From Candidatus Omnitrophota bacterium (lineage in GTDB: Bacteria > Omnitrophota > Gorgyraeia > Duberdicusellales > 4484-171): a DNA stretch of 64,000 nucleotides. Positions 8,591 through 24,543 of the stretch are shown piece after piece (within the stretch, counting starts at the first letter, position 1; every line of letters begins with the position of its first letter). Below the pieces are notes generated by a model, which was not told where the DNA came from, made no database searches, and worked only from the letters and a program-made list of their open reading frames with translations. Position numbers and translations under genes: made by a program. The stretch lies in the NCBI GenBank assembly GCA_024231025.1, contig JAAEQW010000341.1:54155-118154 (forward strand), given 5' to 3'.

Positions 8591-8607
8591 TGGCTCCCCG
8601 GGTAGGG
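8591..8607. repeat. 17-nt duplicate of the tRNA-Asn 3' end (candidate att site of integrated island B)
   Basis: TGGCTCCCCGGGTAGGG here is identical to 20812..20828 (reverse complement of the last 17 nt of the tRNA including CCA); lies ~150 bp from the serine recombinase gene end. Confidence 0.65.
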
Positions 8608-8720
8608 GCAGAAATTACCTTAATAAAAACAATGGGAATATTTCTGCACTTCCTCGGGCAGTAGCCCTCGGTCGCTCAACAGCTGCCTTCGGCAGAGTTC
8701 GAGACCAAACGGGGACATAT

Positions 8721-8762
8721 AAAATAAAAATCCCCCGCAAAATGCGGGGGATATTTTATTCA
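8721..8762 (-). terminator. rho-independent terminator downstream of serine recombinase gene (probably bidirectional)
   Basis: CCCCCGC-aaaat-GCGGGGG stem flanked by A/T runs on both sides. Confidence 0.6.
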
Positions 8763-10369: not shown

Positions 10370-10381
10370 TTATGCCTCCTC

Positions 10382-10747
10382 TCATTTTCTGTACCTTTTC
10401 ATCTGCTGGGTAAGATCTACAATTATCCAGCCATCATTTAAACGCGTAGCTTTGTACCTCCCTATAGCAAATCCTGCTTCTATTGCTTGATTGACAAGAT
10501 CGCAGTTGTTAATTATTAGAGCGGAATCATCCATGCTATTCAAAAAGTAAACATCAGGATCATCTATCCACCCTTGTTTTTGAAAAGGAAAGACGCAAAT
10601 ACGACTATGTTCTTTTTGAAAGATAACTTTAGCCATATCAAACTCTCTAGAAACCCATCTCCCGCATCCTTTGCTCAAATAAAGATTCCCTGCATTCCTG
10701 TAACTGCAATAATACATATTGTTTCGTTCAATAATTGTCTCTATCAT
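10382..10747 (-). CDS. hypothetical protein (121 aa), co-transcribed with serine integrase
   Basis: ORF 12 nt upstream of the integrase gene; no motif recognised. Confidence 0.45.
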   Translation of the reverse strand: MIETIIERNNMYYCSYRNAGNLYLSKGCGRWVSREFDMAKVIFQKEHSRICVFPFQKQGWIDDPDVYFLNSMDDSALIINNCDLVNQAIEAGFAIGRYKATRLNDGWIIVDLTQQMKRYRK

Positions 10748-11032
10748 TTTTATGCTCCTTATGATTTTGTGTTATAAATAGAAATATCCCGTCAGCTATC
10801 AAATGGACTATTTCATCTTCATTTGGATCTGTTACCATTGCTGGATCATTACGTAGCATAAAGGCCTCCTCGTTTTCTTGCCTCTATATTGCTAGTTTCC
10901 CATACCAATAACAGACTAAAAAGCATCTGCTATCAGCAATCCAGCAAAACGATTATTCTTTCACTTCGGTATTTATGTCATGACTGACGGCAGGAAATAC
11001 CTTACTCGCTCGAATATCGCTGGCGATTATTA

Positions 11033-11254
11033 TTAAAGCTCTACTTTTTTAAACATCGTGGTTGCGAAGCTGTTTTTTGCGCTCTGAAGAGCTGCATCAA
11101 TCGCCCCGAACATTTTTTCAACTTGCTCTACTGAAAAGGCGTACGACTTGCGCTCCGAACAATTTGCCAGGATTTCTAATTGCTCGATTATTCTGTTCGA
11201 TCTTTTCGTTGCTATCCGCTTGAACCTTTCTTGTGGTGTTTCGCTCATCGACAA
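11033..11254 (-). CDS. small 73-aa protein, paralog of 5058..5279
   Basis: See 5058..5279; heads the integrase operon. Confidence 0.5.
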   Translation of the reverse strand: MSMSETPQERFKRIATKRSNRIIEQLEILANCSERKSYAFSVEQVEKMFGAIDAALQSAKNSFATTMFKKVEL

Positions 11255-11395
11255 TCTCCTTCCGTTAATATAACGCTAATACTCAAGATATGCTCTATAT
11301 CTCATCTGCAATGATTATATCGTATATATATAATCATGTCAAGATTATTTTTATAACTTCAGGATAGCCTGAGATTGCTCTAGATTGAGGATTTA

Positions 11396-11475
11396 TTAGC
11401 AAAAAAGGTAAAATCCTTTACTCGGTTAAAAACCACCCTACATTTGAATGTAGACGAATTAGACAGCTATTCTGT
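11396..11475. repeat. ~75-nt repeated intergenic element, copy a (hairpin GGTAAA-n4-TTTACC plus CTACATT-TGA-AATGTAG palindrome)
   Basis: Shares AAAAGGTAAAATyCTTTACy...CTACATTT.AAT..AGACGAATTAGA.AGCTA.TC with copies at 12205..12280 and 18655..18715. Confidence 0.6.
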
Positions 11476-11541
11476 TATTCTTTTACGATCACACCCCTCT
11501 TTATCATTTATCTTAAAGCCATGCTGTGATAAAATGACATC

Positions 11542-12186
11542 ATGATTGATTATAACTGGATCTTCAGTGCATTGGTCCAATCCTTAGCCGCAATGATTGG
11601 GGTAATAGGCATGTTTGCGGTATATAGATTGCAAACACAAGAAAAAATAATCGAGAAGAAATTTGAAAAGTTTCGTATATTCTTAGAAGAAAATACAGGA
11701 ACGAAGATAGATAATCCTACGGAAGAAAGAATTATTGAAAAAGCCAAAGGTGTTAGACAGAAATACCAAAAAATCATTAACGATTCCCCAAATAACCTTA
11801 ATGTTATGAAAAATACACAAGGATTCACCGATAGTGCAATGGAACAAGCATCAAGCATAGCCGATGTGGGGATAGAAATATTTAAAAAACATACCATAGA
11901 TATTGATAACTTTAATGCATCTATAGAGCAACATAAAAATAAAAATAAAGATATATCTAAACAAGCTTTAGATATAGTAGGTCAACTAGTTTTTCTGTTT
12001 GGTTTAAGCGTGTTAGTGCTTATATTTAGTAAAGTACTTACTGTGACAAATACTGAGTTGTTTGAACCGGGAACAATGACAGTAGTATACGGAGGGCTTG
12101 TTGTTCTAACTATAGTCTCTATTTATCTTGTCATTTTGTTGCGTACTATATATGTTTTCTGCAACACCTGTTTTTCTGTTAAGTAA
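11542..12186 (+). CDS. hypothetical membrane protein (214 aa)
   Basis: N-terminal TM (IFSALVQSLAAMIGVIGMFAVY) and two C-terminal TM segments; flanked by repeat copies a and b. Confidence 0.5.
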   Translation: MIDYNWIFSALVQSLAAMIGVIGMFAVYRLQTQEKIIEKKFEKFRIFLEENTGTKIDNPTEERIIEKAKGVRQKYQKIINDSPNNLNVMKNTQGFTDSAMEQASSIADVGIEIFKKHTIDIDNFNASIEQHKNKNKDISKQALDIVGQLVFLFGLSVLVLIFSKVLTVTNTELFEPGTMTVVYGGLVVLTIVSIYLVILLRTIYVFCNTCFSVK

Positions 12187-12204
12187 CTGATTTTAAAATA
12201 GACT

Positions 12205-12280
12205 TAAAAGGTAAAATTCTTTACCCTATCAAAAGCTACTCTACATTTAAATACAGACGAATTAGAAAGCTACTCCTATC
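12205..12280. repeat. repeated intergenic element, copy b
   Basis: See 11396..11475. Confidence 0.6.
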
Positions 12281-13053
12281 TTCTTTTGTGCTTTGAGGAA
12301 TAATCGCTTTGAGACAATGGGCGGGTGTGTTCCTTGGACATGAAAATTACCAAAGCTGGTTTCACCATAATACATCTTATTTCTTAAAACATACTTTAAA
12401 GATTGAATCTGAAATTGTTTACCTCGTTTAGTGGTTGCTCGTAACTTATTAAGCTTACGAACAATGGTTGTATATTTATGTCCCTTAACTAGCCACCTAA
12501 ATATTCTGACTACGTTCTTAGCTTCAGTTGGTTTAATCTCGAGCTTCTTGCCAACCTTAACATAACCAAAAGGTATCGGTCCAGACCCACGTTCACCGTT
12601 CTTAGCGTTATTAATTCTCCCGTCTTTAAGGCGGGCAGTAATAACGTCCTTTTCTAATTCAGCAAAAACATCAGCAATACGCTTAAAAGCTTTCTGTAAA
12701 GGGTCATCTAGATTATATTCTGGGTCTACTACAGAATTAATCTCGATGTCATGTTTCTTGAATTGTGTCTCAAGCCAAAGAGATACAGTCAACTCGCGAC
12801 TCAACCTATCTTGTTTGTAAACAATGACATTATCAATAAGACCATCTTCGCAATCCTTTAATAGTCGCAACAAACCCGGCCTTTCTTTTATCGCACCACT
12901 AATACCCTTATCTTCATAAAATCTGTTAAGCTCCAGATTCTTATCCTTACAATATGCCTCAATCTTATCTCTCTGGATTTCTAATCCTTCGCCGTTTTCG
13001 ACTTGATTAGCAGTTGATACTCTGAGATACCCTACATTATATCTAGATTGCAT
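12262..13053 (-). CDS. serine recombinase (resolvase/invertase-type catalytic domain plus recombinase domain, 263 aa)
   Basis: GYLRVSTANQ catalytic motif, VYKQDRLSRE; shorter than the 537-aa integrase (no zinc ribbon or coiled coil). Confidence 0.8.
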   Translation of the reverse strand: MQSRYNVGYLRVSTANQVENGEGLEIQRDKIEAYCKDKNLELNRFYEDKGISGAIKERPGLLRLLKDCEDGLIDNVIVYKQDRLSRELTVSLWLETQFKKHDIEINSVVDPEYNLDDPLQKAFKRIADVFAELEKDVITARLKDGRINNAKNGERGSGPIPFGYVKVGKKLEIKPTEAKNVVRIFRWLVKGHKYTTIVRKLNKLRATTKRGKQFQIQSLKYVLRNKMYYGETSFGNFHVQGTHPPIVSKRLFLKAQKKIGVAF

Positions 13054-13221
13054 AAGAATTACCCTCCCAATACAATAGATAAACCATCGAGGAATTAAAA
13101 TGTCAAGTTTCGTGTTGAAATAGTTGCCTAAGGCAGATCAGAAACAGTGTCAGGGAGAGTGCATATTGCAAGATGGGTAATGATTTATGGCTGGAAAAGT
13201 TAAAGATTTTTAAAAAAATGT

Positions 13222-14406
13222 TTAGTTCTTGCCGATAACGTATTTTTTAAAATAGTTCTTAGTACCTCCGAAGTACGTTTTAACCCTAGCAATACCAAAA
13301 AAATCATAATATCGCTTAGTAGTGGATCCATCCTGTGCTATGTCTCGTTTTTTAGCATATCGTGCATAAAATGGCTTGTCTTTTGGAGATAGAACGACAT
13401 CAATGCATGCGCTTGGTCGTATCGCCCGTCTAAGAAGCGTTCTTAGGTGATAGTCGGCTTCTGGCAAAGAATACCCCACAAAAACAACCCTATCCGCTGT
13501 GGCTAATTCTGCGTAAGCATTATACCATACTGTCCTTATATGAATATTATCAAAATTCTTTTCAAAGGTCGGCGTAATAATATACGGTTGCAAGACGTGT
13601 TTGTTCTTTTTTCTTCTTACTGTGTGCCCTAGACAATGCTTACAAAAACTATCTTGCACGTACAGTTTTCGCCCCTCATTTGCCCCTAACCCTGTATACA
13701 TCCTGTTACAGTTGGGACAAAAAAGCCAATTAATGGAGCCATGTAGTTTAAGAATTTTTATTCTGTTTTTTTCCTCTTGATTAACAGGCGGAATGGCTAT
13801 CCCGTCACAATCTTCCTTTAGTCGCAAAATGCAACAACAAAAATCTGTGCTGATTTGTTGCTTTTTGTTTTTTGTTTTCTTGGTAATTTTATACACAGAG
13901 TCTTCTAGCAAAGAGTCCCAATTCAAAGATATTACGCTGAGCCTATTTCCTCTTGACCGTTTTTTTATCGTCTCTTTAACAAAATGACTTGCTAAAGAAT
14001 CATAAAATTTATCACCGGTAGTTTCTGAACGTAAAGAAGCTTCATGGAATACAGTTAAAATAAGCCGTTTCAAATCGTCTCTAATACTGTCTAACTCTTT
14101 CCAAGAATAATCAAAACAATTACGTCGTTGCGCTATGGTTTGATCTAGCAATGTAAATAAGTCTTCTAGACTAGGTAGGGCGTTGGGATAAAATATCTGA
14201 TCAATAAATTCTCTGAGCTCTTTTCTCCGAACAAGACTTTCGCCATACAATATATCAAACTTTTGGGAAAAAACTTTAGTTAAAATGAGTCGCTGCAAGG
14301 GAAACCCCGCACCATACGAGAATCCTGCTCCGAATACATAAACTGTCTTGGTAGGTAGGGCTGTTCTCACTTCAGTTTGAAATGTTGGTTTAGCACCTTG
14401 GCCCAT
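13222..14406 (-). CDS. SIR2_2-family sirtuin-like protein (defence-type SIR2)
   Basis: N-terminal Gly-rich NAD loop VYVFGAGFSYGAGFP, LHGS motif (KLHGSINW), zinc ribbon CPNCN...CKHC, Rossmann strand VVFVGYSLPEADYHL. Confidence 0.7.
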   Translation of the reverse strand: MGQGAKPTFQTEVRTALPTKTVYVFGAGFSYGAGFPLQRLILTKVFSQKFDILYGESLVRRKELREFIDQIFYPNALPSLEDLFTLLDQTIAQRRNCFDYSWKELDSIRDDLKRLILTVFHEASLRSETTGDKFYDSLASHFVKETIKKRSRGNRLSVISLNWDSLLEDSVYKITKKTKNKKQQISTDFCCCILRLKEDCDGIAIPPVNQEEKNRIKILKLHGSINWLFCPNCNRMYTGLGANEGRKLYVQDSFCKHCLGHTVRRKKNKHVLQPYIITPTFEKNFDNIHIRTVWYNAYAELATADRVVFVGYSLPEADYHLRTLLRRAIRPSACIDVVLSPKDKPFYARYAKKRDIAQDGSTTKRYYDFFGIARVKTYFGGTKNYFKKYVIGKN

Positions 14407-15788
14407 ACAATACAGTGTCGAACACCGTCTGGCCCAAGAACTTTTTCTAGAGTGCCTTTAGTTTTATTAAGATTTCTAACAATTTCTTTTATGGTCGGCG
14501 TGTTATGATACTCCCGTTTCTTGCACCACATATAATGTGTCACAGTCTTGTTTTTTGTCTCGGTAGCCGGGTATGGCTTGCCTTTTGCAGAATGCTTCAT
14601 TTCTCCATATTCTTTAAATTCACTTTCCGGATTATTTTTTATAATATCCTTACACATTTTACAACTACAAACCGTTTTATAATATCCTGTGATTGTTTTT
14701 GAACCCCCCACAGCACGAAGGGCACGAAGGGCATCGCGGAAAAGAAGTCGCGTGTGTAGTTGTGGAAAATAAAATTTTGCCGCAGGAAAGCCTCCACCCA
14801 CAGGAACAACTCCACGATATTCACCGTATTCTAAACTATGTGCGACCCCTACTAGATTTGGCGTTATCCCGCTTTTGCCTAAAGCCACGGAAAAAAATCC
14901 CCCGTACAGATTTGCTACTGGAGCAATTTGCCCTAGCCTATTAATTAAATTAATTAAGGCTTCTAGCTTTATGGCCGAAGCATCTTGTTCATACAAATCG
15001 TCTACCCACAATAAGAAAATGTCCGGCTTAACTTTTGCATATTCTTCTACGAGCATATCAATTTTTTCATTATCTATTAAGATATCCTGAGATATAACAA
15101 TTTGGCTTGCCAAAGGTTTCTTTTTTGCCTTTAAAATTTTCTTAGAAATTTTAGAACACATTACATTTACCTGCAACCACTTTTTAAATTCACTTTCGAA
15201 TAAGTAAAAATATGGTGCTACAATAGTTGTCGGAGAAAACATATCCGACACTTTTAGCCCGATATATCTGTAATACTTTGCAGCATCGGATCCTTCCAAT
15301 TCCCTAGAAACGGTTTCCAGCTGAAAGTTAATAACTCTCTGACAAAACCCCCGTGTTACTGACGAATCTTTAAAATCTTTGGGAATAAGTGGTCGTTTTT
15401 TATTAAGTATGCTCGTTTCTACAGGCTCACCGAAGGCATCTATTAATTTTTTAATTGATTTCTTTATTTGCCCTTTTGATTTTTCAGATTGAGACTCTAT
15501 AAGGCTCAAATCATGCTGAAAGGCATGCGTTTGAGGGTCTATTATATACGGCTTATTTTTTGCCTTTGTGGAAATAAACATAGCTATCGCGCTTGTCATA
15601 TATGCCATAATGTTTGCATTCACAATAAGCTGATCATAGGTGGCCAAAAGACTGCCTAGCAAAAACTTCTGATCAGCGGCTGTTCCAAACCGTACTAAAT
15701 GAAATCCTGCTATTGGCTTCATGCTTCCTGAACGTCTTGTTTGTTTTTTTGGATATACTTTTTTATCCATGTTTTTCCTACTCGCCAA
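14367..15788 (-). CDS. hypothetical protein with weak tRNA-guanine transglycosylase (Tgt/DpdA)-like features
   Basis: C-terminal CSCKMCK...H (CxCxxC..H) zinc motif as in TGT; LYGGFFSVALG and LVGVAHS resemble the Tgt GGLAVGE and LMGVGKP segments; weak, by eye only. The 40-nt overlap with the SIR2 gene suggests the true start or stop may differ. Confidence 0.35.
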   Translation of the reverse strand: MASRKNMDKKVYPKKQTRRSGSMKPIAGFHLVRFGTAADQKFLLGSLLATYDQLIVNANIMAYMTSAIAMFISTKAKNKPYIIDPQTHAFQHDLSLIESQSEKSKGQIKKSIKKLIDAFGEPVETSILNKKRPLIPKDFKDSSVTRGFCQRVINFQLETVSRELEGSDAAKYYRYIGLKVSDMFSPTTIVAPYFYLFESEFKKWLQVNVMCSKISKKILKAKKKPLASQIVISQDILIDNEKIDMLVEEYAKVKPDIFLLWVDDLYEQDASAIKLEALINLINRLGQIAPVANLYGGFFSVALGKSGITPNLVGVAHSLEYGEYRGVVPVGGGFPAAKFYFPQLHTRLLFRDALRALRAVGGSKTITGYYKTVCSCKMCKDIIKNNPESEFKEYGEMKHSAKGKPYPATETKNKTVTHYMWCKKREYHNTPTIKEIVRNLNKTKGTLEKVLGPDGVRHCIVWAKVLNQHFKLK

Positions 15789-16138
15789 ATTTCTCTAGAG
15801 CGTGGTGCTGATATAACCTCTTCAAATGGCCACCGTCCGTCCTCGCGATAAAACTTAAGACCAACTCCTGCTGATTTGAGGGCTCTCCTCATTTCTTGCG
15901 TAATTTTGCGCTTGGGCATACACACGTAAGAAAAGTCTGCTCCTAATTTATGGTCGTATGATTGTCGTATCGCTCTGCGCCAATTGAAAAGCTTAAACTC
16001 TATGGCAACAACTGTATTATTTTCAATATAAACTAGATCCGCAAACCTCCCCAACACAGGAACCTCACGGCACACATCCATTGAGAAATGTTGCGTCAAT
16101 CGTTTATAAGCACTATCCACAAGGGTTCGTTCACACAT
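15719..16138 (-). CDS. small PD-(D/E)xK-fold nuclease-like protein
   Basis: GRFADLVYIEN...VVAIEFKL gives a D...ExK motif in a beta-strand context; 139 aa; the overlap with the upstream ORF suggests an internal start. Confidence 0.5.
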   Translation of the reverse strand: MCERTLVDSAYKRLTQHFSMDVCREVPVLGRFADLVYIENNTVVAIEFKLFNWRRAIRQSYDHKLGADFSYVCMPKRKITQEMRRALKSAGVGLKFYREDGRWPFEEVISAPRSREIWRVGKTWIKKYIQKNKQDVQEA

Positions 16139-16724
16139 TGCGCTTCTTAAAAATCCTTTCCGCTATTTTGGAGTTTGTTGCCATTTTAGGATATTTTGTA
16201 TAAACATATCTCAACAGAGCATACAAAGAGATCTCTAAGCAACGACATTTAAAAGTATGAACACCCTCCCATTGCTCTGCTGTTAAATTTCCCAAATTGC
16301 CATCTTTAACAAAATTTAAACCATTGTTCGTTAAAGAAAATTCAACTGCGTTATTGCGCTCGTTATCAGAACCACCTGCTATTCCTGAACTCACCTGCCA
16401 ATATTCATACTCACACATATCTTCTTCTGCCTCCTTGTCCGAACACGAAGGCCGCGGATTTACAAAGCCAAGGTTAACTAAAAACTCTAGGTCTGCGTAG
16501 ATTTGATCCGCAAAAGGTCCATAGTCATACGGCTGGAAGTCAGGAAAAGCAGAGTCCGGAATGGCTTTTTCCAAATTGAACTTAGCACGGATTTCTTTCT
16601 GAAACAAGAAAACCATTTTTACCATACGAATGCGTGTTCGTATCGGTTCGTTCTTTTGCCCCTTATATCCTTTGGCATAAAGCAATAGCATTATAATATC
16701 TTTTGTGCTTGTTATTTTCGCCAT
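16131..16724 (-). CDS. hypothetical protein (197 aa), first gene of the SIR2 operon
   Basis: ORF overlapping the downstream gene by 8 nt; no motif recognised. Confidence 0.45.
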   Translation of the reverse strand: MAKITSTKDIIMLLLYAKGYKGQKNEPIRTRIRMVKMVFLFQKEIRAKFNLEKAIPDSAFPDFQPYDYGPFADQIYADLEFLVNLGFVNPRPSCSDKEAEEDMCEYEYWQVSSGIAGGSDNERNNAVEFSLTNNGLNFVKDGNLGNLTAEQWEGVHTFKCRCLEISLYALLRYVYTKYPKMATNSKIAERIFKKRNV

Positions 16725-16891
16725 GTTTCCCTTTGCATGTTCTTGCCTCTATTTTTATTATAAATCCGTTTCCGGCATAATCAAGAACTTCTTGGCCCGG
16801 CATTTTCGCTGTTTTTGATCTCCACACTACACCTTATATAACAAAGGGTTTGTTTTATTGACACCTGTTTCATTCTTACTATAATAAAGCC

Positions 16892-17701
16892 ATGAAAGAA
16901 ATCGATACTTATTTATTCCACTACGCAGAAAAACAATATGACACCCAAACTGCTTTACTAAGAGACATAAACACAAAGATAGCCAATGTGCTTGTTGCTA
17001 TAGGTTTTTTGTTAACCCTCACTGCCTATCTGGCTAATGCTATATTTAAATTACAATTAGAGCCATGGTTGCTCTTACCACTCTTAACCCCCTCGATCCT
17101 GGGTGCATATAGCTTCTTAAGGGCTCTAGGCAGAGTTATACATTTTTTGAGGCTCCAAGAATATAAGCTACCGTCTATGGAGGCAGACATTCAAAAGGCA
17201 ATCATAGATCTGCAAAAGAAAAACAAAGATGAAACAAACGAAAGTGATATTCTTCAGGATCTTACCCAAAATTATATTACAGCTTTTAATGATAACATGA
17301 CTTCGGGATCAGAAAGGCACAAGCTTTTCAAGATTCTCGTCAACTATATTCGTAACGGGATTATATCAATTATTATATCTTTTGTGGTTTTATTTTTTAT
17401 AAAAACACCCACCTGTCTATTGACCGGTAAAGAAAAAAGGGAGGAAGTAAAAATGATAAGGAACATGGACCAGGAAAAAGAAGAAGAGCAAAAACAAGAC
17501 AATGAGCCTAACAACGAAAAAAATAATAGTGCCCAGCCTCAGGAACCGTCACAGGAACCTGAAAAAACTCAACAACCGTCTGTTCTCGGCAATCCAACGC
17601 TAGTGACAGCGTCTGATCATTCTACAGATTCTGAAACGGTGAGTTCTGACGATAATAAATCAGAAAGCAAGCCAGAAAACGAATCAGAAAAACAGGAATA
17701 A
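16892..17701 (+). CDS. hypothetical membrane protein with acidic low-complexity C-terminus
   Basis: TM segments (VLVAIGFLLTLTAYLANAIF; IISIIISFVVLFFI); C-terminal E/Q/N/S-rich tail. Confidence 0.5.
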   Translation: MKEIDTYLFHYAEKQYDTQTALLRDINTKIANVLVAIGFLLTLTAYLANAIFKLQLEPWLLLPLLTPSILGAYSFLRALGRVIHFLRLQEYKLPSMEADIQKAIIDLQKKNKDETNESDILQDLTQNYITAFNDNMTSGSERHKLFKILVNYIRNGIISIIISFVVLFFIKTPTCLLTGKEKREEVKMIRNMDQEKEEEQKQDNEPNNEKNNSAQPQEPSQEPEKTQQPSVLGNPTLVTASDHSTDSETVSSDDNKSESKPENESEKQE

Positions 17702-17826
17702 AGGCATATGTCTGAGCGCAATAAGACGTATTAACTACTCCTGCCACGGGTTAAAATTCAGCTATCAAAGTAATGGTACAAGTATCCATAAACCCATTAC
17801 CCTGATGTTCCGTATTTACAAAATAC

Positions 17827-18000
17827 TTATACAGATCCTCTCAAAAGCAAGTCAAACACGCAAATAACTGTTACAATTATTGTAATAATCGCGAGAAGTT
17901 TCACAACGATGCCTTCTTTTCGGTCTCCCGACCTTGTCAAAAACGAAATCATTCTCGTAGTCACATAAAACCCTATCATCATCCCGATTGATGGTATCAT
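17827..18000 (-). CDS. unannotated small hydrophobic protein (57 aa), possible type I toxin or holin-like peptide
   Basis: ATG at 18000 preceded by AGGAGG 6 nt upstream; translation MIPSIGMMIGFYVTTRMISFLTRSGDRKEGIVVKLLAIITIIVTVICVFDLLLRGSV; not in the ORF track (<60 aa). Confidence 0.4.
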   Translation of the reverse strand: MIPSIGMMIGFYVTTRMISFLTRSGDRKEGIVVKLLAIITIIVTVICVFDLLLRGSV

Positions 18001-18027
18001 CTACAACCTCCTTTTGTGTGATTCATG

Positions 18028-18444
18028 CTAATTCTGCCATGCGGTTAGTTTCCCGTCTTCAAAATAATAATAACTACCGTTATAAACTACTTGTTCAAAA
18101 ACACCATAAGACGTAACAGTCCTGTTAATTTCAGGATAAGACCACAACCCCATGACTACCTTTAGATCCGATTTGGACATCCCGATCCATACCTGGCCTT
18201 CGCAAACTCTAATTTTTGTCTGTTCATCTGCAAATAATTCTGGGTGCTTCGCTACATACACTTCTCTGCGATATTGATAAATACTGACTTTATCACCTGT
18301 AATGGGTCCTGTATAACTAACAAGTCCACACCCTATGCAAAATAATGTAGCTACAAAAATCAATATTATTGAAACTTTCTTCTCCATAATTCCTCCTTCC
18401 GCCCTCCCCAAAAAAAGGGGGGAGCGCATTTCTACTACCGACAA
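18028..18444 (-). CDS. probable lipoprotein/secreted protein (true start probably MEKKVSII... near 18384)
   Basis: Signal-like IILIFVATLFCIGCG; a GC hairpin at 18401..18428 lies upstream of the likely start. Confidence 0.5.
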   Translation of the reverse strand: MSVVEMRSPLFLGRAEGGIMEKKVSIILIFVATLFCIGCGLVSYTGPITGDKVSIYQYRREVYVAKHPELFADEQTKIRVCEGQVWIGMSKSDLKVVMGLWSYPEINRTVTSYGVFEQVVYNGSYYYFEDGKLTAWQN

Positions 18445-18654
18445 CCGTTAAGTAAATCCGATAGAGCTGCATTCTCCCCGTAATTACAGGAACCAACAAC
18501 TCCACCACACTTAACGGTTAACAGGGCCAAACCCTGTCTTATGGCAAAATTAAATTACACCTAATTATATGAACACTTAAAGTTTATCACCCTCCTTACT
18601 ATCAGACAAGCTAAAAACTATTTGAGCCTACATTACCCCTAGATTGGGTTTTTA

Positions 18655-18715
18655 CAGATTTAAAAGGTAAAATTGTTTACCTACCTATTAAAGTCGCTAC
18701 ATCGATAAACTAAAG
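18655..18715. repeat. repeated intergenic element, copy c (partial)
   Basis: AAAAGGTAAAATTGTTTACC...CTACAT shared with copies a and b. Confidence 0.5.
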
Positions 18716-18741
18716 CCATTCTGCCTTATTCGGTATTACTT

Positions 18742-19920
18742 TTAGTAACATTCTCCCCAAGTTTTACCTATCTTACAAGAAACGGTAAATTTCATACCTT
18801 TAATTTCTATCTCCATGATCTCTTTAATTCTTTGCAAGCTCTTATCAATTTCAAGATCGGGAACTATAACAAGTGCTGAATCATGAACTGTAGCGCTTAT
18901 CTTGAAACCTTCACTATGAAGTTTAACTAGGGAGAATTTAAGAATATCTGCAGCAGTGCCCTGAATGCAATGGTTAACAGCCCGCCTTTCAGCTTTCTTA
19001 CGATCAGTTATGTTGGAAGCATTTATATCAAGAAGAAATCTCTTACGCCCATAATAAGTTTCAGTAAAACCTGTAGAGCGTGCTTTCTTAATTGTTTCTG
19101 ACTTAAAACTTTCTATCTCAGGTATTTTAGATTTATATACGTCCATTAATTCTTGGGCTTCGCTTATTGATATATGTAGGTTTCTGGCTAGACCATTGGC
19201 TTCTTGTCCATACGCCAATCCGAAATTAAGCGTCTTGCCTAGCTTACGTTCTTTATCAGTAACGGAATCATACAGAACCCCCTTCATGTCAGCAACAACT
19301 TTCCTATGTAAATCCAACCCTTTAGCCCAACACTCCTTGAAATACACATCATCAGAGAGAGCGCTAAGTATTCTCAGTTCAAAGCTATTATAATCTGCTA
19401 TGATGAACGAATGACCACCATCTGCGCATATGATACCTCTAGCCACTTCAGGGATACTTTGGAAACTATAGCTTTTTGTGTATAATCGTCCTGACATGCA
19501 TGTATCTATGTACCTACAGAATATCTTACCTTTAGCTTTATCAGTAGCTTTATGAATTGCCTTCAGAGAGCTTAAGAGTTTCTCTAGGTTGCGGTAGGTT
19601 GCAATTTTATCGGTAAGGGGGTTATTGACGCCTTTAAGCACTCTCCGAGAAGTGCTGTACCGGCCTGTTCTCGTCCTCTTAGGATTAACCCCTAAAACCT
19701 TGAATAGAATATCGGCAACATCCCTTGAACTATTGAAGTTAACCTCACCTTGAATACCGAGTATTTGCTTGAGTTCTTGTTCAATTCCGTTCTTCTCTTG
19801 CAAGGTTTTCTGGATTAATTTATCAAGTTTAGGAAAATCTACGTTTAGACCGCGTTGTTCCATCGCTTGCTTAACGTTAATCATGTCGTGCTCTAGGTTT
19901 TCTATAATTTTACTATGCAT
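18742..19920 (-). CDS. stand-alone family-A (Pol I-like) DNA polymerase domain, no exonuclease domains
   Basis: Motif A IIADYNSFELRILSALSDD, motif B RKLGKTLNFGLAYGQ, motif C TVHDSALV, plus RRAVNHCIQGTAADILK; 392 aa covers the thumb/palm/fingers only. Confidence 0.8.
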   Translation of the reverse strand: MHSKIIENLEHDMINVKQAMEQRGLNVDFPKLDKLIQKTLQEKNGIEQELKQILGIQGEVNFNSSRDVADILFKVLGVNPKRTRTGRYSTSRRVLKGVNNPLTDKIATYRNLEKLLSSLKAIHKATDKAKGKIFCRYIDTCMSGRLYTKSYSFQSIPEVARGIICADGGHSFIIADYNSFELRILSALSDDVYFKECWAKGLDLHRKVVADMKGVLYDSVTDKERKLGKTLNFGLAYGQEANGLARNLHISISEAQELMDVYKSKIPEIESFKSETIKKARSTGFTETYYGRKRFLLDINASNITDRKKAERRAVNHCIQGTAADILKFSLVKLHSEGFKISATVHDSALVIVPDLEIDKSLQRIKEIMEIEIKGMKFTVSCKIGKTWGECY

Positions 19921-20015
19921 TTTCGTAATGGTTTAATGTGTTGGGGACCCCCTACCCCCAACATCAATATATAAACCATCGCATTTTCTGCGTGTCAATA
20001 AAACATTTGAAATAG

Positions 20016-20480
20016 TTACGGCCTAACCTTTGAGTTTATAATATAAAACTCTTGTGCGACTAGATCTTTTGTGCCGATTTTCTTTATCAGGTAATACGAA
20101 GCTCCCCCTAACGGGTTATATCCTTCAACTAACGAAGTACCTCCGAAAAACTTTTTTGCTTTATTGTTGATTATCTCTGCATGCTTGGGATCGATTCGAT
20201 CGATAAGAGCGTGAATATGTATTCCGGCTGACGATGTACTGTGCCTTTCATAAAACACAAGACACCGAACAAAACTATCAAAGTATATTTCGTCATTCTT
20301 ATTGAGATATTTTATGAACCGCTTAAACTCTTTCTTGGCTGTCTCGTAAGAGACAAACTTTCTAAAATTAGCGTTGAAAAACAATGTCCACTCATAATCT
20401 CCCAACAAATACCGCCTATACGCCTCTAGAATTATCTGCCTCTTGTTCCATGCAAGGTTATCTTCGAGTTTAATCTTCAC
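20016..20480 (-). CDS. small HUH-endonuclease Rep-like protein
   Basis: HUH motif GIHIHALIDRI and downstream YY motif (GGASYYLIKKIG) typical of rolling-circle Rep or relaxase catalytic core; 154 aa. Confidence 0.5.
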   Translation of the reverse strand: MKIKLEDNLAWNKRQIILEAYRRYLLGDYEWTLFFNANFRKFVSYETAKKEFKRFIKYLNKNDEIYFDSFVRCLVFYERHSTSSAGIHIHALIDRIDPKHAEIINNKAKKFFGGTSLVEGYNPLGGASYYLIKKIGTKDLVAQEFYIINSKVRP

Positions 20481-20757
20481 AATTTACCTCCTGTCTTTAG
20501 ACAATAAAAAAGGGATACCAGAGTGCAAACTAAGGTATCCCTTATGATTAATAAAACCGATTTTTGATGATTGGCTACTTGGGAATTCGCCATCTTTTCG
20601 CCTCTCATTAATTATACTTGTCAGTGTTGCCACTAGGCATAAATAAAAAAAGGCAGCCGCGTTTTCTTGCGACTGCCTTTTAATTTTCCTCTGAAATTTC
20701 TACTTTTATACGCCTTTTTGCGTTAATAACAATGGCGTTGTGATTCTTTCTGCCCCT

Positions 20758-20803
20758 ACAAAAAGAAACGGGAAGCGTTAGCCATAATACTAAACGCTTC
20801 CCG
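20758..20803 (-). terminator. rho-independent terminator just downstream of the tRNA gene
   Basis: On the minus strand CGGGAAGCGTT-loop-AACGCTTCCCG followed by TTTCTTTTTGT. Confidence 0.55.
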
Positions 20804-20811
20804 ATATTATT

Positions 20812-21232
20812 CTGGCTCCCCGGGTAGGGCTCGAACCTACGACCTATTGGTTACAGTTACCCTCTAAGTTTCCTTAAAGACTGGACTATATCATTACCGT
20901 CCCGCCATGGGCGGGATACGGTATCAGGCGCTTCGACCCCGAAATTTCGGGGGCTACTCCCTCGCGGGATAGTCTCTGCACGTTCTCCGAATAATCGGAG
21001 CTTCGCTCAGGATTGCCATATTCTTACGAACTTAGGTTTCCCTGAATTCACCTGATTCTTCACTCTACAGTTTCCTGTAGAGGCTGCCATGCACCGAGAT
21101 CCTTCGACTCAGTCGACCTAAGGTCTCCTTCACTCAGGATCAATTCGGCTATATAATTTTTCTGCCGTTTTTGGCCTGAAAAATTATAGTCTCATTGACA
21201 GCCAACCGCTCTACCAATTGAGCTACCGGGGA
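20812..21232 (-). tRNA. tRNA-Asn(GUU) interrupted by a 345-nt group I intron in the anticodon loop (exons 21198..21232 and 20812..20852); CCA encoded
   Basis: 5' exon UCCCCGGUAGCUCAAUUGGUAGAGCGGUUGGCUGU and 3' exon UAACCAAUAGGUCGUAGGUUCGAGCCCUACCCGGGGAGCCA fold as a standard cloverleaf (U8, A14, G18G19, TTCGAGC T-loop; anticodon loop CU-GUU-AA). The splice follows U35 and the intron ends with G. Confidence 0.75.
20853..21197 (-). ncRNA. group I self-splicing intron within the tRNA
   Basis: Intron contains R-like element GUGCAGAGACUAUCC (plus 20965..20980 as reverse complement) and S-like element GAUAUAGUCC (plus 20882..20891), which can form P7 GACUA/UAGUC. Candidate IGS GCAG pairs with exon end CUGU (U.G at the splice site). 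No intron ORF. Confidence 0.65.
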
Positions 21233-21319
21233 ATCACCAAATCTTAAGAGAACGAAAAGTCTTTAAATTATAACCTATTTGCATTTTATCGTCAAGTAAA
21301 GCGCAAACTTGAAAAATAT

Positions 21320-21730
21320 CTATTTCTTTTTTATATTAGCCAAAACCCACTCGAATATTCTTTTAGTAGATTTTGCTACATCGTGGGCTTCTTTTTCGTG
21401 AATACTACGGCAGTCATATTGGATGGCGTTCTTTTTGGCAATAATCCTTTTCAGAGCAACGCTTTTTTCTTTGTCACCAGGTAAAGATACAGTCGCCATA
21501 AGGTCGCAAACATCTTTATGGTCTTGAGAGATGGACCTTGTGCCTAATCTATAGACGCAGATAGCATCAGCTGAAGAAATAACGCATTGTATGGCTAATG
21601 TTCCTACGGCATTGTAGTTCTTATGGTTCAAGGCAGAAATCATTTCTTCGTAATTATCTTCGGCCTTTTTAAGATATTGGTATGATGCCGCGGGATCTTC
21701 TTGTCTGGTTCTTATATTCTTTGGTCCCAT
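21320..21730 (-). CDS. HEPN-domain protein (toxin of a HEPN/MNT pair)
   Basis: R-x5-H motif (RSISQDH) in a helical context; 136 aa; directly downstream of the MNT gene. Confidence 0.6.
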   Translation of the reverse strand: MGPKNIRTRQEDPAASYQYLKKAEDNYEEMISALNHKNYNAVGTLAIQCVISSADAICVYRLGTRSISQDHKDVCDLMATVSLPGDKEKSVALKRIIAKKNAIQYDCRSIHEKEAHDVAKSTKRIFEWVLANIKKK

Positions 21731-21733
21731 ATG

Positions 21734-22363
21734 TTATATCCAGTCCAAAGGATCTTCTCCGTAAATCACCGAGTAAGATTTTATAAGTGACGCAACAGGA
21801 GAAAGCCTCTTTTTTAAACGGTTAATAAATTCTTTTTTGGTTTTGATATAGGGATCAAGGCGTACCTGAAAATATTCATCAAAATCATAAGATATTTTTT
21901 CAATAAAAATTTCTTCTATGAGGGGCAAGTCTTTTATGTTATTTGCAACAATAGCTATATCAACATCGCTTTTTTCGGTGGCTTGCTTTGTGTGTCGGCT
22001 CCCATAAAACATAACTGAAGCTAGTTTGTTGGAAATTTTATGTTTTCGAATAGCCGCAGTTATGAAGCTTATAGCATCTTTTAAAAAAGAATCTTCTTTA
22101 CGAAAGGCAGGCATTAGTATTGTTTTTACTAATCGACTTTTGACGTTTAATCGGTATAGATGAAGTTTTCCTTTTATTTCGCGGTTAAGAATACTATACT
22201 CATATAGCTCTTTAAGCGCAGCGTGAGTTGCAGGAGGGCTAAGCTTAATTGCTCTAGAGATTTCCCGACCGCAGGCCATAAAATCTTCGCGATAAAAAGT
22301 AAAGAATCGCACGATTTTAACTTTAGCGTTTGTATTAAGAATGTTATCTAGTGATTTCTCCAT
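21734..22363 (-). CDS. minimal nucleotidyltransferase (MNT) with N-terminal wHTH (antitoxin-like)
   Basis: FYGSRHTKQATEKSDVDIAIV gives the GS...D.D polymerase-beta-like NTase motif. Confidence 0.6.
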   Translation of the reverse strand: MEKSLDNILNTNAKVKIVRFFTFYREDFMACGREISRAIKLSPPATHAALKELYEYSILNREIKGKLHLYRLNVKSRLVKTILMPAFRKEDSFLKDAISFITAAIRKHKISNKLASVMFYGSRHTKQATEKSDVDIAIVANNIKDLPLIEEIFIEKISYDFDEYFQVRLDPYIKTKKEFINRLKKRLSPVASLIKSYSVIYGEDPLDWI

Positions 22364-22445: not shown

Positions 22446-23279
22446 CTAATACAAATCAAGAATTTCTCTTTTCTCGGTTCTGAACTCAAATCGATCGATG
22501 ACGCCTTCTTCATATGCTTGTTTCAGTTCTCGCAGCGCCCTAAAGATAGTATACTTCTCCTTTTTATGCTTTTTCTTGCCGCTAGTATAAGACTTAGCGA
22601 ATAACTCTCTTTTCTTTGCTCTGAGTTCAAAACGATCTATCGCTCCCTGATCATTTAATTTTTTTAATTTTTTAAGTTGATTAAAAATATACGGACTCAG
22701 ATAGACTGTTTCTTTCTTTTTTCCATCCATCTCCAAAATTTGACGCTTCTTGGATCTGAATTCAAAACGATCTATCGCTTCTTGCTTGCGCAACTTTTGA
22801 AACTTTGCGATGTCATCAAGAGGATCGTGCTTATTCTTTCTGTGATGCTCCTTCTTTTCTTCAAAATCATCAAGATGATCACGATCTCTTAACTCACCTA
22901 CATTAAAAACCGCACTATACTGGCTGAAATCAACTAAAATTAGAGTAGCTTTGGCAAATTCCATTGTATCTTTGATTTCCATTTTGCTTATGCCTAAGCT
23001 CTTTTCCTTACCAACGATAAGACCAAAAATCGTAGAAAATAGCGATTGTGACGAACTAACCATAAAATGCGCTTTATCGCCATACTCACCAAGATATTCT
23101 ATCCGATGATTACCTAGGGTCATCGAGCTGCCCTTATCTAAGGTAACATATGATTGTTGATACTCTCGTTGATAAGTGTATCCGCTAAAAGGCACGGCAA
23201 CTAATAATAGAAAAACCATTAATCGTTTCATTATCTCCTCCCTTTTGTTATTTGAATTATTATCCATGTATCCGATCAT
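22446..23279 (-). CDS. secreted/membrane-anchored protein with three SHOCT-like C-terminal repeats (likely start MKRLMVFLL at 23231)
   Basis: Signal peptide MKRLMVFLLLVAVPFSG; repeats AIDRFEFRSKKRQIL / AIDRFELRAKKRELF / VIDRFEFRTEKREIL match the SHOCT consensus. Confidence 0.6.
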   Translation of the reverse strand: MIGYMDNNSNNKREEIMKRLMVFLLLVAVPFSGYTYQREYQQSYVTLDKGSSMTLGNHRIEYLGEYGDKAHFMVSSSQSLFSTIFGLIVGKEKSLGISKMEIKDTMEFAKATLILVDFSQYSAVFNVGELRDRDHLDDFEEKKEHHRKNKHDPLDDIAKFQKLRKQEAIDRFEFRSKKRQILEMDGKKKETVYLSPYIFNQLKKLKKLNDQGAIDRFELRAKKRELFAKSYTSGKKKHKKEKYTIFRALRELKQAYEEGVIDRFEFRTEKREILDLY

Positions 23280-24321: not shown

Positions 24322-24543
24322 ATCCAAATATCGAAATTCGAAACAATATCGAAATTCGGAACAATATCGAAATTCTAATGATAAAAATTATAAACCCGAA
24401 CAGATCATCTTGTTTTGAAAATTAGAGTTTTGGTCATTCGAATTTGTTTCGTTTTTCGCCTGCCTGCCGGCAGGCAGGGATTTCGTGCTTCGGATTTTAT
24501 AAATGTTGCATTTTGATATTTGGTTATTATGTAACATATTCAA

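Follow-up and report, generated by a model that had tools for sequence, protein, structure and literature searches.

A stand-alone HUH Rep and an exonuclease-less family A polymerase as the likely replication module of a tRNA-integrated island in Omnitrophota

The window, a 64,000-nucleotide stretch of DNA, comes from the metagenome-assembled genome, with locus tags GY858_09545 and GY858_09550, of an uncultured Omnitrophota bacterium. It contains an integrative island of 12.2 kb, spanning about 8608..20812, whose insertion site is the 3′ end of a tRNA-Asn gene. At the tRNA-proximal end of this island, a gene for a small HUH protein (rep) lies next to a polA-like gene, which encodes a family A DNA polymerase reduced to its polymerase domain (PolA). 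We suggest, with a probability of roughly 0.6, that the two genes form the replication module of the integrated element, in which the circle formed on excision would be nicked by Rep and the nick extended by the polymerase. Each protein has known relatives on other mobile elements; their pairing is new.

The ends of the island are marked by the 17-nt sequence CCCTACCCGGGGAGCCA, which occurs in exactly two copies in the window, with none expected from 100 shuffles. The island is defined by the following features.

8591..8607, minus strand: attR core, an exact duplicate of the 17-nt tRNA 3′ end, at the far island boundary
8756..10369, minus strand: large serine recombinase, 537 aa (Pfam Resolvase, Recombinase and Zn_ribbon_recom), adjoining attR
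12262..13053, minus strand: small serine recombinase, 263 aa (Pfam Resolvase and Recombinase), without the zinc ribbon
20813..20829, minus strand: attL core, matching attR exactly and formed by the final 17 nt of tRNA-Asn (exact repeat D8)
20813..21232, minus strand: tRNA-Asn(GTT) target gene, with exon 1 at 21232..21198, a group I intron at 21197..20854 and exon 2 at 20853..20813

The rep–polA pair adjoins an att site, as a first-pass annotation made from the sequence alone had stated. The intron of the target gene matches Rfam Intron_gpI (101 bits, E = 1.4e-25). ARAGORN identifies the spliced sequence as tRNA-Asn(gtt) and misses the unspliced gene, and a promoter scan places a promoter-like TTGACG-17-TATAAT at 21295..21267. 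A MNT/HEPN pair adjoins the tRNA, outside the island. The 537-aa recombinase, whose best score is to the NCBIfam CcrB-like model (3.1e-50, below cutoff), is probably the integrase/excisionase of the island. The 263-aa recombinase is 66% identical to a gene of the related locus L006 and 50% identical to one of L001, and its cluster (C6) is present in nine loci. We rejected the idea that it is a truncated gene, as it is a conserved, full-length core gene of the element family; it is a candidate multimer resolvase. ORF and profile searches of the island found no helicase, SSB or primase, which makes truly autonomous replication doubtful.

The two genes of the proposed module were confirmed at the positions and on the strand that had been assigned to them before:

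18742..19920, minus strand: polA-like gene, 392 aa, whose product is confined to the family A polymerase domain (thumb, palm and fingers) and has HDS as motif C
20016..20480, minus strand: rep, 154 aa, a stand-alone HUH rolling-circle initiator with the motif HIHALID

The polymerase matches Pfam DNA_pol_A over profile positions 4–381 of 381 (2.3e-81, 274 bits; cutoff 34.3) and aligns near-continuously to residues 201–600 of the Klenow-fragment chain, equivalent to residues ~524–923 of E. coli Pol I. Because the alignment begins at ~524, the start of the protein corresponds to the boundary between the 3′-5′ exonuclease and polymerase domains. Upstream of the gene there is no exonuclease domain or ORF, only a 95-nt gap followed by rep, in agreement with the earlier description of a polymerase without exonuclease domains. 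With both the 5′ nuclease and the 3′-5′ exonuclease domains missing, the 392-aa protein does not qualify as a bacterial DNA polymerase I. Its score against the NCBIfam polA equivalog is 285.9, compared with a cutoff of 720, and covers model positions 484–888 only.

The equivalents of Klenow D705, E710, R754, K758, F762, Y766, N845, Q849, H881 and D882 are invariant in the family of this polymerase. Together with the full polymerase domain, these nucleotide- and metal-binding residues indicate selection for catalysis. The first-pass annotation had described motifs A, B and C as intact and had named inactivating changes at the catalytic aspartates as evidence against its reading. Both aspartates (D705 and D882) and the motif A and B residues are kept, but the third carboxylate of motif C is replaced throughout the family: the equivalent of Klenow E883 is S here, and S, G or A in 64/64 members. 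This invariant loss, at a family A active site whose other residues are perfectly conserved, poses a clear and testable question of enzymology. A literature search on Glu883, on DUF2958 (see below) and on Omnitrophota mobile elements found nothing useful. In Klenow, S769 and F771 are implicated in strand separation (PMC10520511). Neither is conserved in the PolA family, where position 769 is E in 58/66 and position 771 is variable. Helicase-free strand displacement therefore has no sequence support, and we make no claim that PolA displaces strands independently of a helicase.

The PolA family is tight and comprises approximately 66 sequence clusters of 344–451 aa, at 55–76% identity, from metagenome-assembled genomes of Omnitrophota and Planctomycetota. 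Beyond these, identity falls to 35% or less for cellular Pol I. Among 185,579 species representatives the family was found at only eight loci, indicating that it is sporadic rather than universal. Scanning IMG/VR with the PolA alignment gave no relatives, and PLSDB contained only ordinary polA at no more than 36% identity. None of 16 complete short contigs of related loci is circular by terminal overlap. These searches revealed no excised or extrachromosomal form, which counts against the replication-module reading.

The genes that accompany PolA support a replication module. In eight independent loci, PolA directly follows an HUH Rep on the same strand. The order is kept even though the Reps have diverged: those of L006 and L017 are ~30% identical to the window Rep, and their PolA proteins are 62–64% identical to that of the window. 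This conservation supports the first-pass view of the pair as a replication module. In 14 other loci the genes ahead of PolA encode a P-loop ATPase together with a clamp-loader-like AAA+ protein (PHROG 5846, 4.9e-35), and are themselves preceded by tandem iterons. Thus, PolA is always found among replication genes, while the initiator is swapped. A DUF2958 small protein follows PolA in 13/28 related loci; the gene downstream of PolA in the window encodes a 138-aa protein with no Pfam match. Sequence searches of the PDB gave no match for the class-B ATPase or DUF2958.

The position of the module within the elements is also constant. Wherever upstream sequence is present, a tRNA or tmRNA gene is found upstream of the PolA module, and in 12 loci and this window it lies 150–350 bp from the first replication gene. 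The genes used for insertion vary (tRNA-Asn, Ser, Phe and Gln, and tmRNA). In the window, L006 and L027 the element is delimited by exact att repeats of 17 nt; in the latter two, the repeats of the tmRNA or tRNA 3′ end are located 10.1 and 12.6 kb downstream, and a tyrosine integrase occupies the position equivalent to the 537-aa recombinase. Cargo and integrase type differ between elements, and the att-proximal position of rep and PolA is fixed.

The 154-aa protein is a genuine single-tyrosine HUH Rep, as judged from its invariant motifs, profile matches and fold. Both histidines of the HUH motif (H88-I-H90), which the first-pass annotation had recognized, are invariant in 98 Rep relatives; for E78 and Y130, conservation is 90% or higher. 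We propose that E78, H88 and H90 are metal ligands and that Y130 is the nucleophile. Y130 is located in helix 127–133 of the Rep model, C-terminal to the HUH motif. Of the YY motif reported earlier, only this second tyrosine is conserved; the first, Y129, is not, and Rep is consequently of the one-Tyr type. The protein has both the motifs and an HUH/Rep nuclease fold; lack of this fold in profile or structure searches had been named in the first-pass annotation as evidence against its reading. The proteins closest to it in structure are replication initiators of viruses and plasmids. The best profile and fold matches are SIRV1 ORF119 and the Rep nuclease domains of parvovirus/AAV, likewise small single-Tyr HUH nucleases with an E + HUH metal site. 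SIRV1 ORF119 is also a stand-alone protein, of ~120 aa and without a helicase domain. Unlike the Rep described here, these proteins are viral and lack a family A polymerase as a partner; their identity to Rep is only 10–17%. The window Rep scores 19.4 bits against Pfam PF23343 (REP_ORF2-G2P), below the gathering cutoff of 27.8, and 68/98 of its relatives match this family at E ≤0.01 (best 4.6e-14). We considered Rep-Arvir, described in a 2026 paper, as the family of this Rep and rejected it, since Rep-Arvir is a Rep_trans-like family.

In other phyla, relatives of Rep adjoin tyrosine integrases in small islands without a polymerase, and some match Pfam RepSA (PF20199) and adjoin integrases. 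These arrangements fit Rep as an initiator of integrative elements, like RepSA of pSAM2 (PMC2440964), and indicate that Rep does not intrinsically need PolA. The window island resembles pSAM2 in combining a Rep gene and a recombinase with att repeats located at a tRNA gene. pSAM2 (repSA-xis-int) and AICE/IME elements are similarly tRNA-integrated with an HUH-type Rep beside recombination genes, and are thought or shown to replicate by rolling circle after excision (PMC2440964; PMC5714925). They differ in relying on host polymerases; in addition, RepSA is much larger, and their FtsK-like transfer gene is absent here.

Three non-coding features precede rep.

20512..20541, minus strand: hairpin HP3, GGGATACC..GGTATCCC with a T-run, 20–30 nt before the rep start, predicted at -16 kcal/mol
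20567..20606, minus strand: conserved block GAGAGGCGAAAAGATGGCGAATTCCCAAGTAGCCAATCAT upstream of rep, with a conserved TATAAT before it at 20616..20611
20648..20804, minus strand: element-end leader with terminator-like hairpins HP1 (20804..20770) and HP2 (20681..20648)

The 40-nt block is kept in the window, L001, L003 and L016, elements whose Reps belong to one subclade. It was not seen in the aligned L017 and L018, which have Reps of another subclade, or in the ATPase-type L013. It is our best candidate for the Rep recognition or nick region (double-strand origin), and may also or instead be an operator of rep. The HP3 stem is maintained through compensatory changes in L001, L003 and L016, and its loop varies. 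We rejected the loop as the nick site, as it is not conserved among close relatives, and its variability makes the 40-nt block the better candidate for the nick region. HP3 itself may be a leader attenuator or an origin hairpin. A search for an origin or nick site near rep, suggested in the first-pass annotation, thus yields the block and HP3 as candidates, but no nick-site consensus is identifiable there. The element-end leader is kept in the window, L001, L016, L017 and L018. Its L017 copy contains a compensatory pair, and HP2 is flagged by the terminator scan. An identical HP1/HP2 block is present in L013, which has no Rep, and we therefore rejected it as a Rep-specific origin. The leader probably ends tRNA read-through or forms an attP arm.

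These data suggest a possible cycle for the element. The large serine recombinase beside attR would excise the island as a circle. Rep would nick one strand at the origin by means of Y130 and a metal held by E78, H88 and H90; the origin most likely lies within the conserved block and the hairpin that immediately precede rep (20512..20606). The polymerase would then extend the freed 3′-OH, convert the displaced single strand into duplex, or both. Host helicase, SSB and perhaps Pol III would cover the functions that the island does not encode, and the 263-aa recombinase may resolve multimers. If the module works in this way, element-encoded family A polymerases would extend from SCC-type islands of Bacillota to Omnitrophota and Planctomycetota, uncultured phyla whose mobile elements are barely studied. 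One polymerase serving two unrelated initiation systems would be a natural experiment on what self-copying needs. The Rep–PolA pair occupies ~1.8 kb; if it is sufficient together with a host helicase, it could be used as a compact replicon or as an isothermal nick-and-extend pair.

More tentatively, the islands could represent an unrecognized ‘self-synthesizing’ class of elements, defined by a dedicated exonuclease-less PolA with a family-specific HD[G/S/A] site in place of HDE and constituting a PolA counterpart of pipolins and casposons. Those elements are also integrative, often at tRNA genes, and carry defence cargo and a DNA polymerase of their own (PMC5695915, PMC11551731). However, their polymerase belongs to family B and is primer-independent or protein-primed rather than dependent on a Rep nick, and there is no sequence relationship. 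Were such a class real, PolA would be a portable replicase able to work with exchangeable initiators (an HUH nickase in some elements, an iteron-binding ATPase with a clamp-loader-like protein in others), and Rep plus PolA would be a two-protein nick-and-extend rolling-circle replicon.

We asked whether PolA instead acts as a primase-polymerase like CcPol-MP. In that case the leading strand would be started by Rep or the host, and PolA together with a small partner protein would prime the displaced strand de novo or extend RNA primers to convert the lagging strand. Rolling-circle plasmids require Pol I-type extension at the single-strand origin, which we count for this alternative. The family-wide change of E883 to S, G or A and altered fingers residues suggest a non-standard activity, and DUF2958 holds a position after PolA comparable to that of MP. 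A published precedent is CcPol of SCCmec, a characterized family A polymerase without exonuclease domains. It is encoded on islands that serine recombinases move, and together with the small protein MP it primes DNA synthesis (Bebel et al., 2020, PMC7581432; Rice, 2023, PMC10061031). As a parallel for such a polymerase in island replication, CcPol also supports our main reading, and with the wider PolA-SSB primases of Bacillota islands it makes outdated the earlier remark that PolA-only proteins in mobile islands are not well described. As with the elements described here, integration of SCCmec and PolA-SSB islands is site-specific and targets the 3′ terminus of a conserved gene (ssrA for some, as in L006), and these islands have serine recombinases, defence-type cargo and a polymerase within a replication operon. 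However, in CcPol-MP-Cch2 the partners of the polymerase are an OB-fold SSB and a helicase, in place of the HUH nickase found here. No OB-fold SSB gene directly follows the polymerase among the window ORFs, a position where relatives carry DUF2958, and the window has neither a DUF2958 gene nor another small ORF beside PolA. The island also has no linked helicase of the Cch/Cch2 type, and sister elements carry the P-loop ATPase. The target genes (rlmH for SCCmec, a tRNA gene here) and the hosts (Bacillota, compared with Omnitrophota and Planctomycetota) differ as well. CcPol is reported to be 15–22% identical to cellular Pol I, whereas PolA has a full-length polymerase domain at 31–36%, pointing to separate lineages. 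Considering these differences, we regard a priming role as unlikely.

A still less probable alternative is that Rep is a mobilization relaxase, which nicks an oriT for single-stranded transfer by a co-resident conjugative system, with PolA restoring the duplex in donor or recipient. HUH Rep-type proteins are known as relaxases of integrative mobilizable elements (PMC7563843). Small islands with Rep and an integrase alone exist, and the element, having no conjugation genes, could be a hitch-hiker. Yet no conjugative system was seen within the window, and only 1/98 Rep relatives matches Pfam Relaxase, compared with 68 for the replication-initiator family. The structural neighbours of Rep argue in the same direction. 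So do the sister elements, where Rep gives way to iterons, an ATPase and a clamp-loader-like protein, all of which serve replication and not transfer.

The first-pass annotation had also considered a nucleic-acid-synthesizing effector, in defence or another function, for which gene context offers no support and which we consider very improbable. PolA does match the PADLOC RTasPolA (DRT) model (3.5e-31), and the island has defence-like cargo (a SIR2-like and a PDC-M19A-like gene), with the MNT/HEPN pair by the tRNA, outside the island. The PADLOC match, however, reflects general family A homology, and profile and PADLOC searches found no reverse transcriptase in the island and no RT domain in any neighbouring ORF. 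Rep matches no PADLOC model, the partners of PolA in sister elements are replication proteins, and the pair stays att-proximal while the cargo varies. It is equally improbable that PolA serves these reduced genomes as a housekeeping or domesticated polymerase with an incidental Rep neighbour: many members of the family come from very long contigs, of as much as 579 kb, but PolA here lies within exact att repeats, the insertion sites differ between loci, and the eight loci among the species representatives indicate a sporadic rather than universal gene.

Two further non-coding features flank the polA-like gene.

18656..18681, minus strand: terminator-like hairpin and T-run 3′ of polA, closing the rep–polA module (direct-repeat family D4)
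19940..19998, minus strand: rep–polA intergenic region with the motif TTGACA..GATGGTTTAT and a GC-rich hairpin (19962..19940) before the polA start

The intergenic motif is conserved in the window, L006, L017, L001 and L016; it resembles a promoter and may act as one, and was unflagged by the consensus promoter scan. A small ORF over the rep start (MANSQV...) was rejected as a protein, because its conservation is at the nucleotide level only. Copies of D4 are located at 18656-18681, 12200-12225 and 11397-11422, and the 263-aa recombinase gene is likewise followed by a sequence of this kind.

The two proteins are identical to GenBank GY858_09545 and GY858_09550 from a Candidatus Omnitrophica MAG. 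Their genes are adjacent:

18742..19920 (-): PolA, a 392-aa polymerase, separated by 95 nt from the Rep gene
20016..20480 (-): Rep, a 154-aa HUH protein recognised by its motifs, profile matches and fold

PolA consists of a polymerase domain only, as the first-pass annotation proposed. Pfam DNA_pol_A covers the protein end to end (2.3e-81, profile 4-381 of 381). Its alignment to residues 201-600 of the Klenow-fragment chain corresponds to E. coli Pol I about 524-923, indicating that PolA begins at the end of the 3'-5' exonuclease domain. The NCBIfam Pol I equivalogs are matched only over their C-terminal 400 positions, with scores far under the cutoffs. A word-indexed search defines a family of about 66 clusters at 55-76% identity, many labelled Omnitrophica, whose members are 344-451 aa long and all have DNA_pol_A as their sole domain. 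The next sequences are two outliers with identities of about 45%; ordinary multi-domain Pol I proteins come after these and reach no more than 35%.

The equivalents of Klenow R668, Q677, D705, E710, R754, K758, Y766, N845, Q849, H881 and D882 are invariant in the family, and 28 of 29 aligned members keep F762. From its steric-gate Glu and O-helix residues, the sequence predicts a template-dependent, dNTP-using DNA polymerase. Substitution of a catalytic Asp, earlier named as grounds for rejecting the first-pass reading, was not found: both metal-ligand aspartates are intact. The earlier description of motif C as intact holds for these aspartates but not for the third active-site carboxylate. 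Where Klenow has E883, 64 of 64 family members carry S, G or A; of the 50 nearest cellular homologues, 48 carry E. T7 RNA polymerase carries HDS at the motif C position, and the change from HDE to HDS therefore need not abolish catalysis; the literature searched yielded no quantitative data on E883 mutants. Two fingers residues, S769 and F771, are reported to drive strand separation by Klenow (PMC10520511). The S769 position is E in 58 of 66 family members, and the F771 position is variable.

The call of the small protein as HUH Rep-like is likewise borne out. Searched alone, Rep gives a sub-threshold match to PF23343 (REP_ORF2-G2P) and four close homologues. An exhaustive profile search recovered 145 relatives, most of them stand-alone proteins of 130-200 aa. 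Among the 98 that were aligned, H88 and H90 are invariant, E78, G113 and Y130 are conserved at ≥90%, and 68 match PF23343 (best 4.6e-14). This signature of E, HUH and a single Tyr is that of AAV Rep and the CRESS-type Reps. Against the PDB, the family profile matches SIRV1 ORF119, a stand-alone Rep of 119 aa, and parvovirus NS1 nuclease domains. An AlphaFold2 model built from the deep alignment (pLDDT 92.9) matches microvirus replication initiators and ORF2/G2P-domain proteins in a Foldseek search of viral models. An earlier model from a shallow alignment gave weak matches only; thus the structural result hinges on the deeper alignment. Rep contains no helicase domain. In one database protein, encoded on a 996-nt contig, a TruB-like C-terminus (PF16198) follows residues 1-85 of a Rep homologue; this protein is probably an assembly chimera or an insertion-site junction.

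Distant Rep relatives are found on small contigs or chromosomes beside tyrosine integrases and HTH regulators, with no polymerase, in islands whose cargo is restriction-modification or Mrr-type. Many also match the Pfam family RepSA. The same pattern is seen in pSAM2-type rolling-circle integrative elements (PMC2440964), which resemble the Rep side of our element. The lack of a polymerase beside these relatives indicates that this type of Rep does not need PolA, and that the pairing is specific to the Omnitrophota/Planctomycetota lineage.

The pair lies in an island at a tRNA gene. ARAGORN called no tRNA in the window, but Rfam identifies a group I intron at 20862..21106 (-) (101 bits), and joining its flanks gives a 76-nt tRNA-Asn(GTT) with a normal tRNA-Asn fold. 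At two related loci, L001 and L017, the homologous gene is intron-free. Group I introns are known from bacterial genes for tRNA-Leu, fMet, Ile and Arg, but none is known to us in tRNA-Asn. The last 17 nt of the gene recur exactly at 8591..8607, where the number of copies expected by chance is 0, and therefore delimit an island of ~12.2 kb, from 8608 to 20812. Reading away from the tRNA, rep and polA come after a non-coding leader; then follow three small genes, a four-gene cassette in which one product is SIR2-like, the gene of a 263-aa serine recombinase, two unknown ORFs and, adjoining attR, the gene of a 537-aa large serine recombinase. The tRNA gene and two parts of the island have these coordinates:

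20813..21232 (-): tRNA-Asn(GTT) gene; its anticodon loop is split by a 344-nt group I intron (20854..21197)
13222..16724 (-): four-gene cassette (197 aa, 139 aa, 473 aa and a 394-aa SIR2-like protein)
12262..13053 (-): 263-aa serine recombinase with Resolvase and Recombinase domains, lacking zinc ribbon and coiled coil

The cassette is a candidate multi-gene defence system; its 197-aa protein weakly matches PADLOC PDC-M19A, and no named defence system matches the four genes. Among the core genes that the element family conserves is that of the ~260-aa serine recombinase (cluster C6, 9 loci), distinct from the integrase gene located at the end of the element. A direct repeat of 82 nt (79% identity, 11397..11484 and 12200..12287) flanks an ORF at 11542..12186 (+), and its first 26 nt recur just downstream of polA at 18656..18681. 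The shared sequence could be a terminator; alternatively, the 8.6-12.2 kb section of the island may retain the remnant of a nested insertion or duplication.

We used the PolA alignment to scan the GTDB species representatives and the JGI metagenomes, which yielded 28 usable loci, and defined their arrangements by clustering neighbouring ORFs and by Rep profile search. Class A, Rep followed by PolA, comprises 8 loci (the window, L001, L003, L006, L012, L016, L017 and L018). In the 14 loci of class B (L004, L005, L007-L009, L013-L015, L021, L022, L024 and L026-L028), Rep gives way to two other proteins: a 374-aa P-loop ATPase comes first and a 225-aa clamp-loader-like AAA+ protein second, ahead of PolA. 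DUF2958 and then an HD phosphohydrolase follow PolA, with a SurE-like nucleotidase also downstream in some. The AAA+ protein matches PHROG 5846 at 4.9e-35; the ATPase has no match in PDB or PHROG. Tandem 11-nt iterons directly precede the ATPase gene (for example, two copies of CTTAACGTCAC and two of TGGTGGTGAAA), again indicating replication. Class C, from Pirellulales MAGs, consists, in this order, of PolA (42-47% identical to the window protein), a serine recombinase and an HD protein.

In the window and at 12 loci alike, the first replication gene is preceded at a distance of 150-350 bp by a tRNA or tmRNA gene with the same orientation. In L006 (tmRNA) and L027 (tRNA-Ser), 17 nt from the 3' end of the RNA gene recur exactly, 10.1 and 12.6 kb downstream, respectively; the neighbour of this far copy is a tyrosine integrase gene instead of a large serine recombinase gene. 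L006 has the window's whole cargo cassette (12300..15880, 45-54% identity, order kept) and a recombinase 66% identical to the 263-aa protein, but it uses another integration site, and its Rep reaches only 31% identity. This exchange of initiators, integrases and cargo around PolA indicates a modular family of integrative elements in which PolA is the constant replication gene.

Alignment of the interval between tRNA and rep in five Rep-type elements revealed the following features:

20804..20770 (-): hairpin HP1 and T-run, ~10 nt after the tRNA CCA end, with one compensatory pair in L017
20681..20648 (-): hairpin HP2 and T-run, common to all five elements
20616..20611 (-): TATAAT box, specific to a Rep subclade (window, L001, L003, L016)
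20606..20567 (-): 40-nt block, specific to the same subclade
20541..20512 (-): hairpin HP3 and T-run, same subclade, stem kept by compensatory changes, loop variable

The HP1/HP2 block is also present in class B locus L013 and is thus not Rep-specific; it may represent terminators or an attP arm. The TATAAT box, 40-nt block and HP3 are candidates for a double-strand origin or operator and a leader attenuator. No nick-site consensus is recognisable near rep in the aligned elements. Between rep and polA are a GC-rich hairpin and the conserved motif TTGACA..GATGGTTTAT; a terminator-like hairpin lies downstream of polA.

We propose, with a probability of roughly 0.6, that the pair replicates the element. 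Protein identities, island boundaries and conserved linkage are observed; from here we infer every dynamic step. The island would excise, and Rep would nick the circle. PolA would then extend the 3'-OH, turn the displaced strand back into duplex, or both. Host helicase and SSB would supply the functions absent from the island, and the small serine recombinase might resolve multimers. Pointing against this reading, excised forms were not detected (no circular contigs among related short contigs, no family members in IMG/VR or PLSDB), the island has no helicase, SSB or primase gene, and the Klenow strand-separation residues are lost.

The best-surviving alternative is a primase resembling CcPol of SCCmec. 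CcPol also has no more than a polymerase domain; unaided it elongates primers, and together with its partner MP it primes DNA synthesis. Large serine recombinases move the islands whose replication operon includes its gene (PMC7581432). Across Bacillota, related PolA-SSB pairs are common on islands, of which some use ssrA as insertion site (PMC10061031). The general logic is common to our island, but the island lacks the two defining features of those systems, the OB-fold partner and the helicase, and its PolA, found in different phyla, branched separately from bacterial Pol I and has diverged from it far less. We regard such a primase as improbable, and a role of the HUH protein as a mobilisation relaxase as still less so. 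A defence effector is very unlikely, as the PADLOC RTasPolA match of PolA comes without any nearby reverse-transcriptase gene. Equally unlikely is a housekeeping polymerase, contradicted by the att-bounded location and by sporadic spread, with only 8 loci among 185,579 species representatives.

Contrary to the earlier statement, CcPol and the PolA-SSB pairs mean that truncated PolA-only proteins of islands can no longer be called poorly described. The annotated feature is real and its reading as a replication module largely reasonable, but autonomy and novelty were overstated. The searchable literature, whose coverage is incomplete, gave neither an account of this element family nor a case in which an HUH Rep is paired with a family A polymerase. 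Pipolins and casposons (PMC5695915, PMC11551731) are likewise integrative elements with their own polymerase, in their case PolB. More tentatively, the present elements might be "self-synthesising" elements based on PolA, in which a portable replicase combines with interchangeable initiators.

Immediately outside the island, an MNT-like nucleotidyltransferase with an N-terminal HTH and a HEPN gene form a pair at 21320..22363 (-), beside the tRNA promoter, matching PADLOC PDC-M05A and PDC-M05B. A 277-aa protein encoded at 22446..23279 (-) has three internal repeats ~45 aa apart with an 'IDRFEFR..KKR' motif. An 18-nt tandem repeat in three copies (24327..24380) occupies the intergenic region before recR. 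A single 6,747-aa ORF spans 43665..63908 (-), in a region with a GC content of about 44-46% versus about 38% elsewhere in the window.
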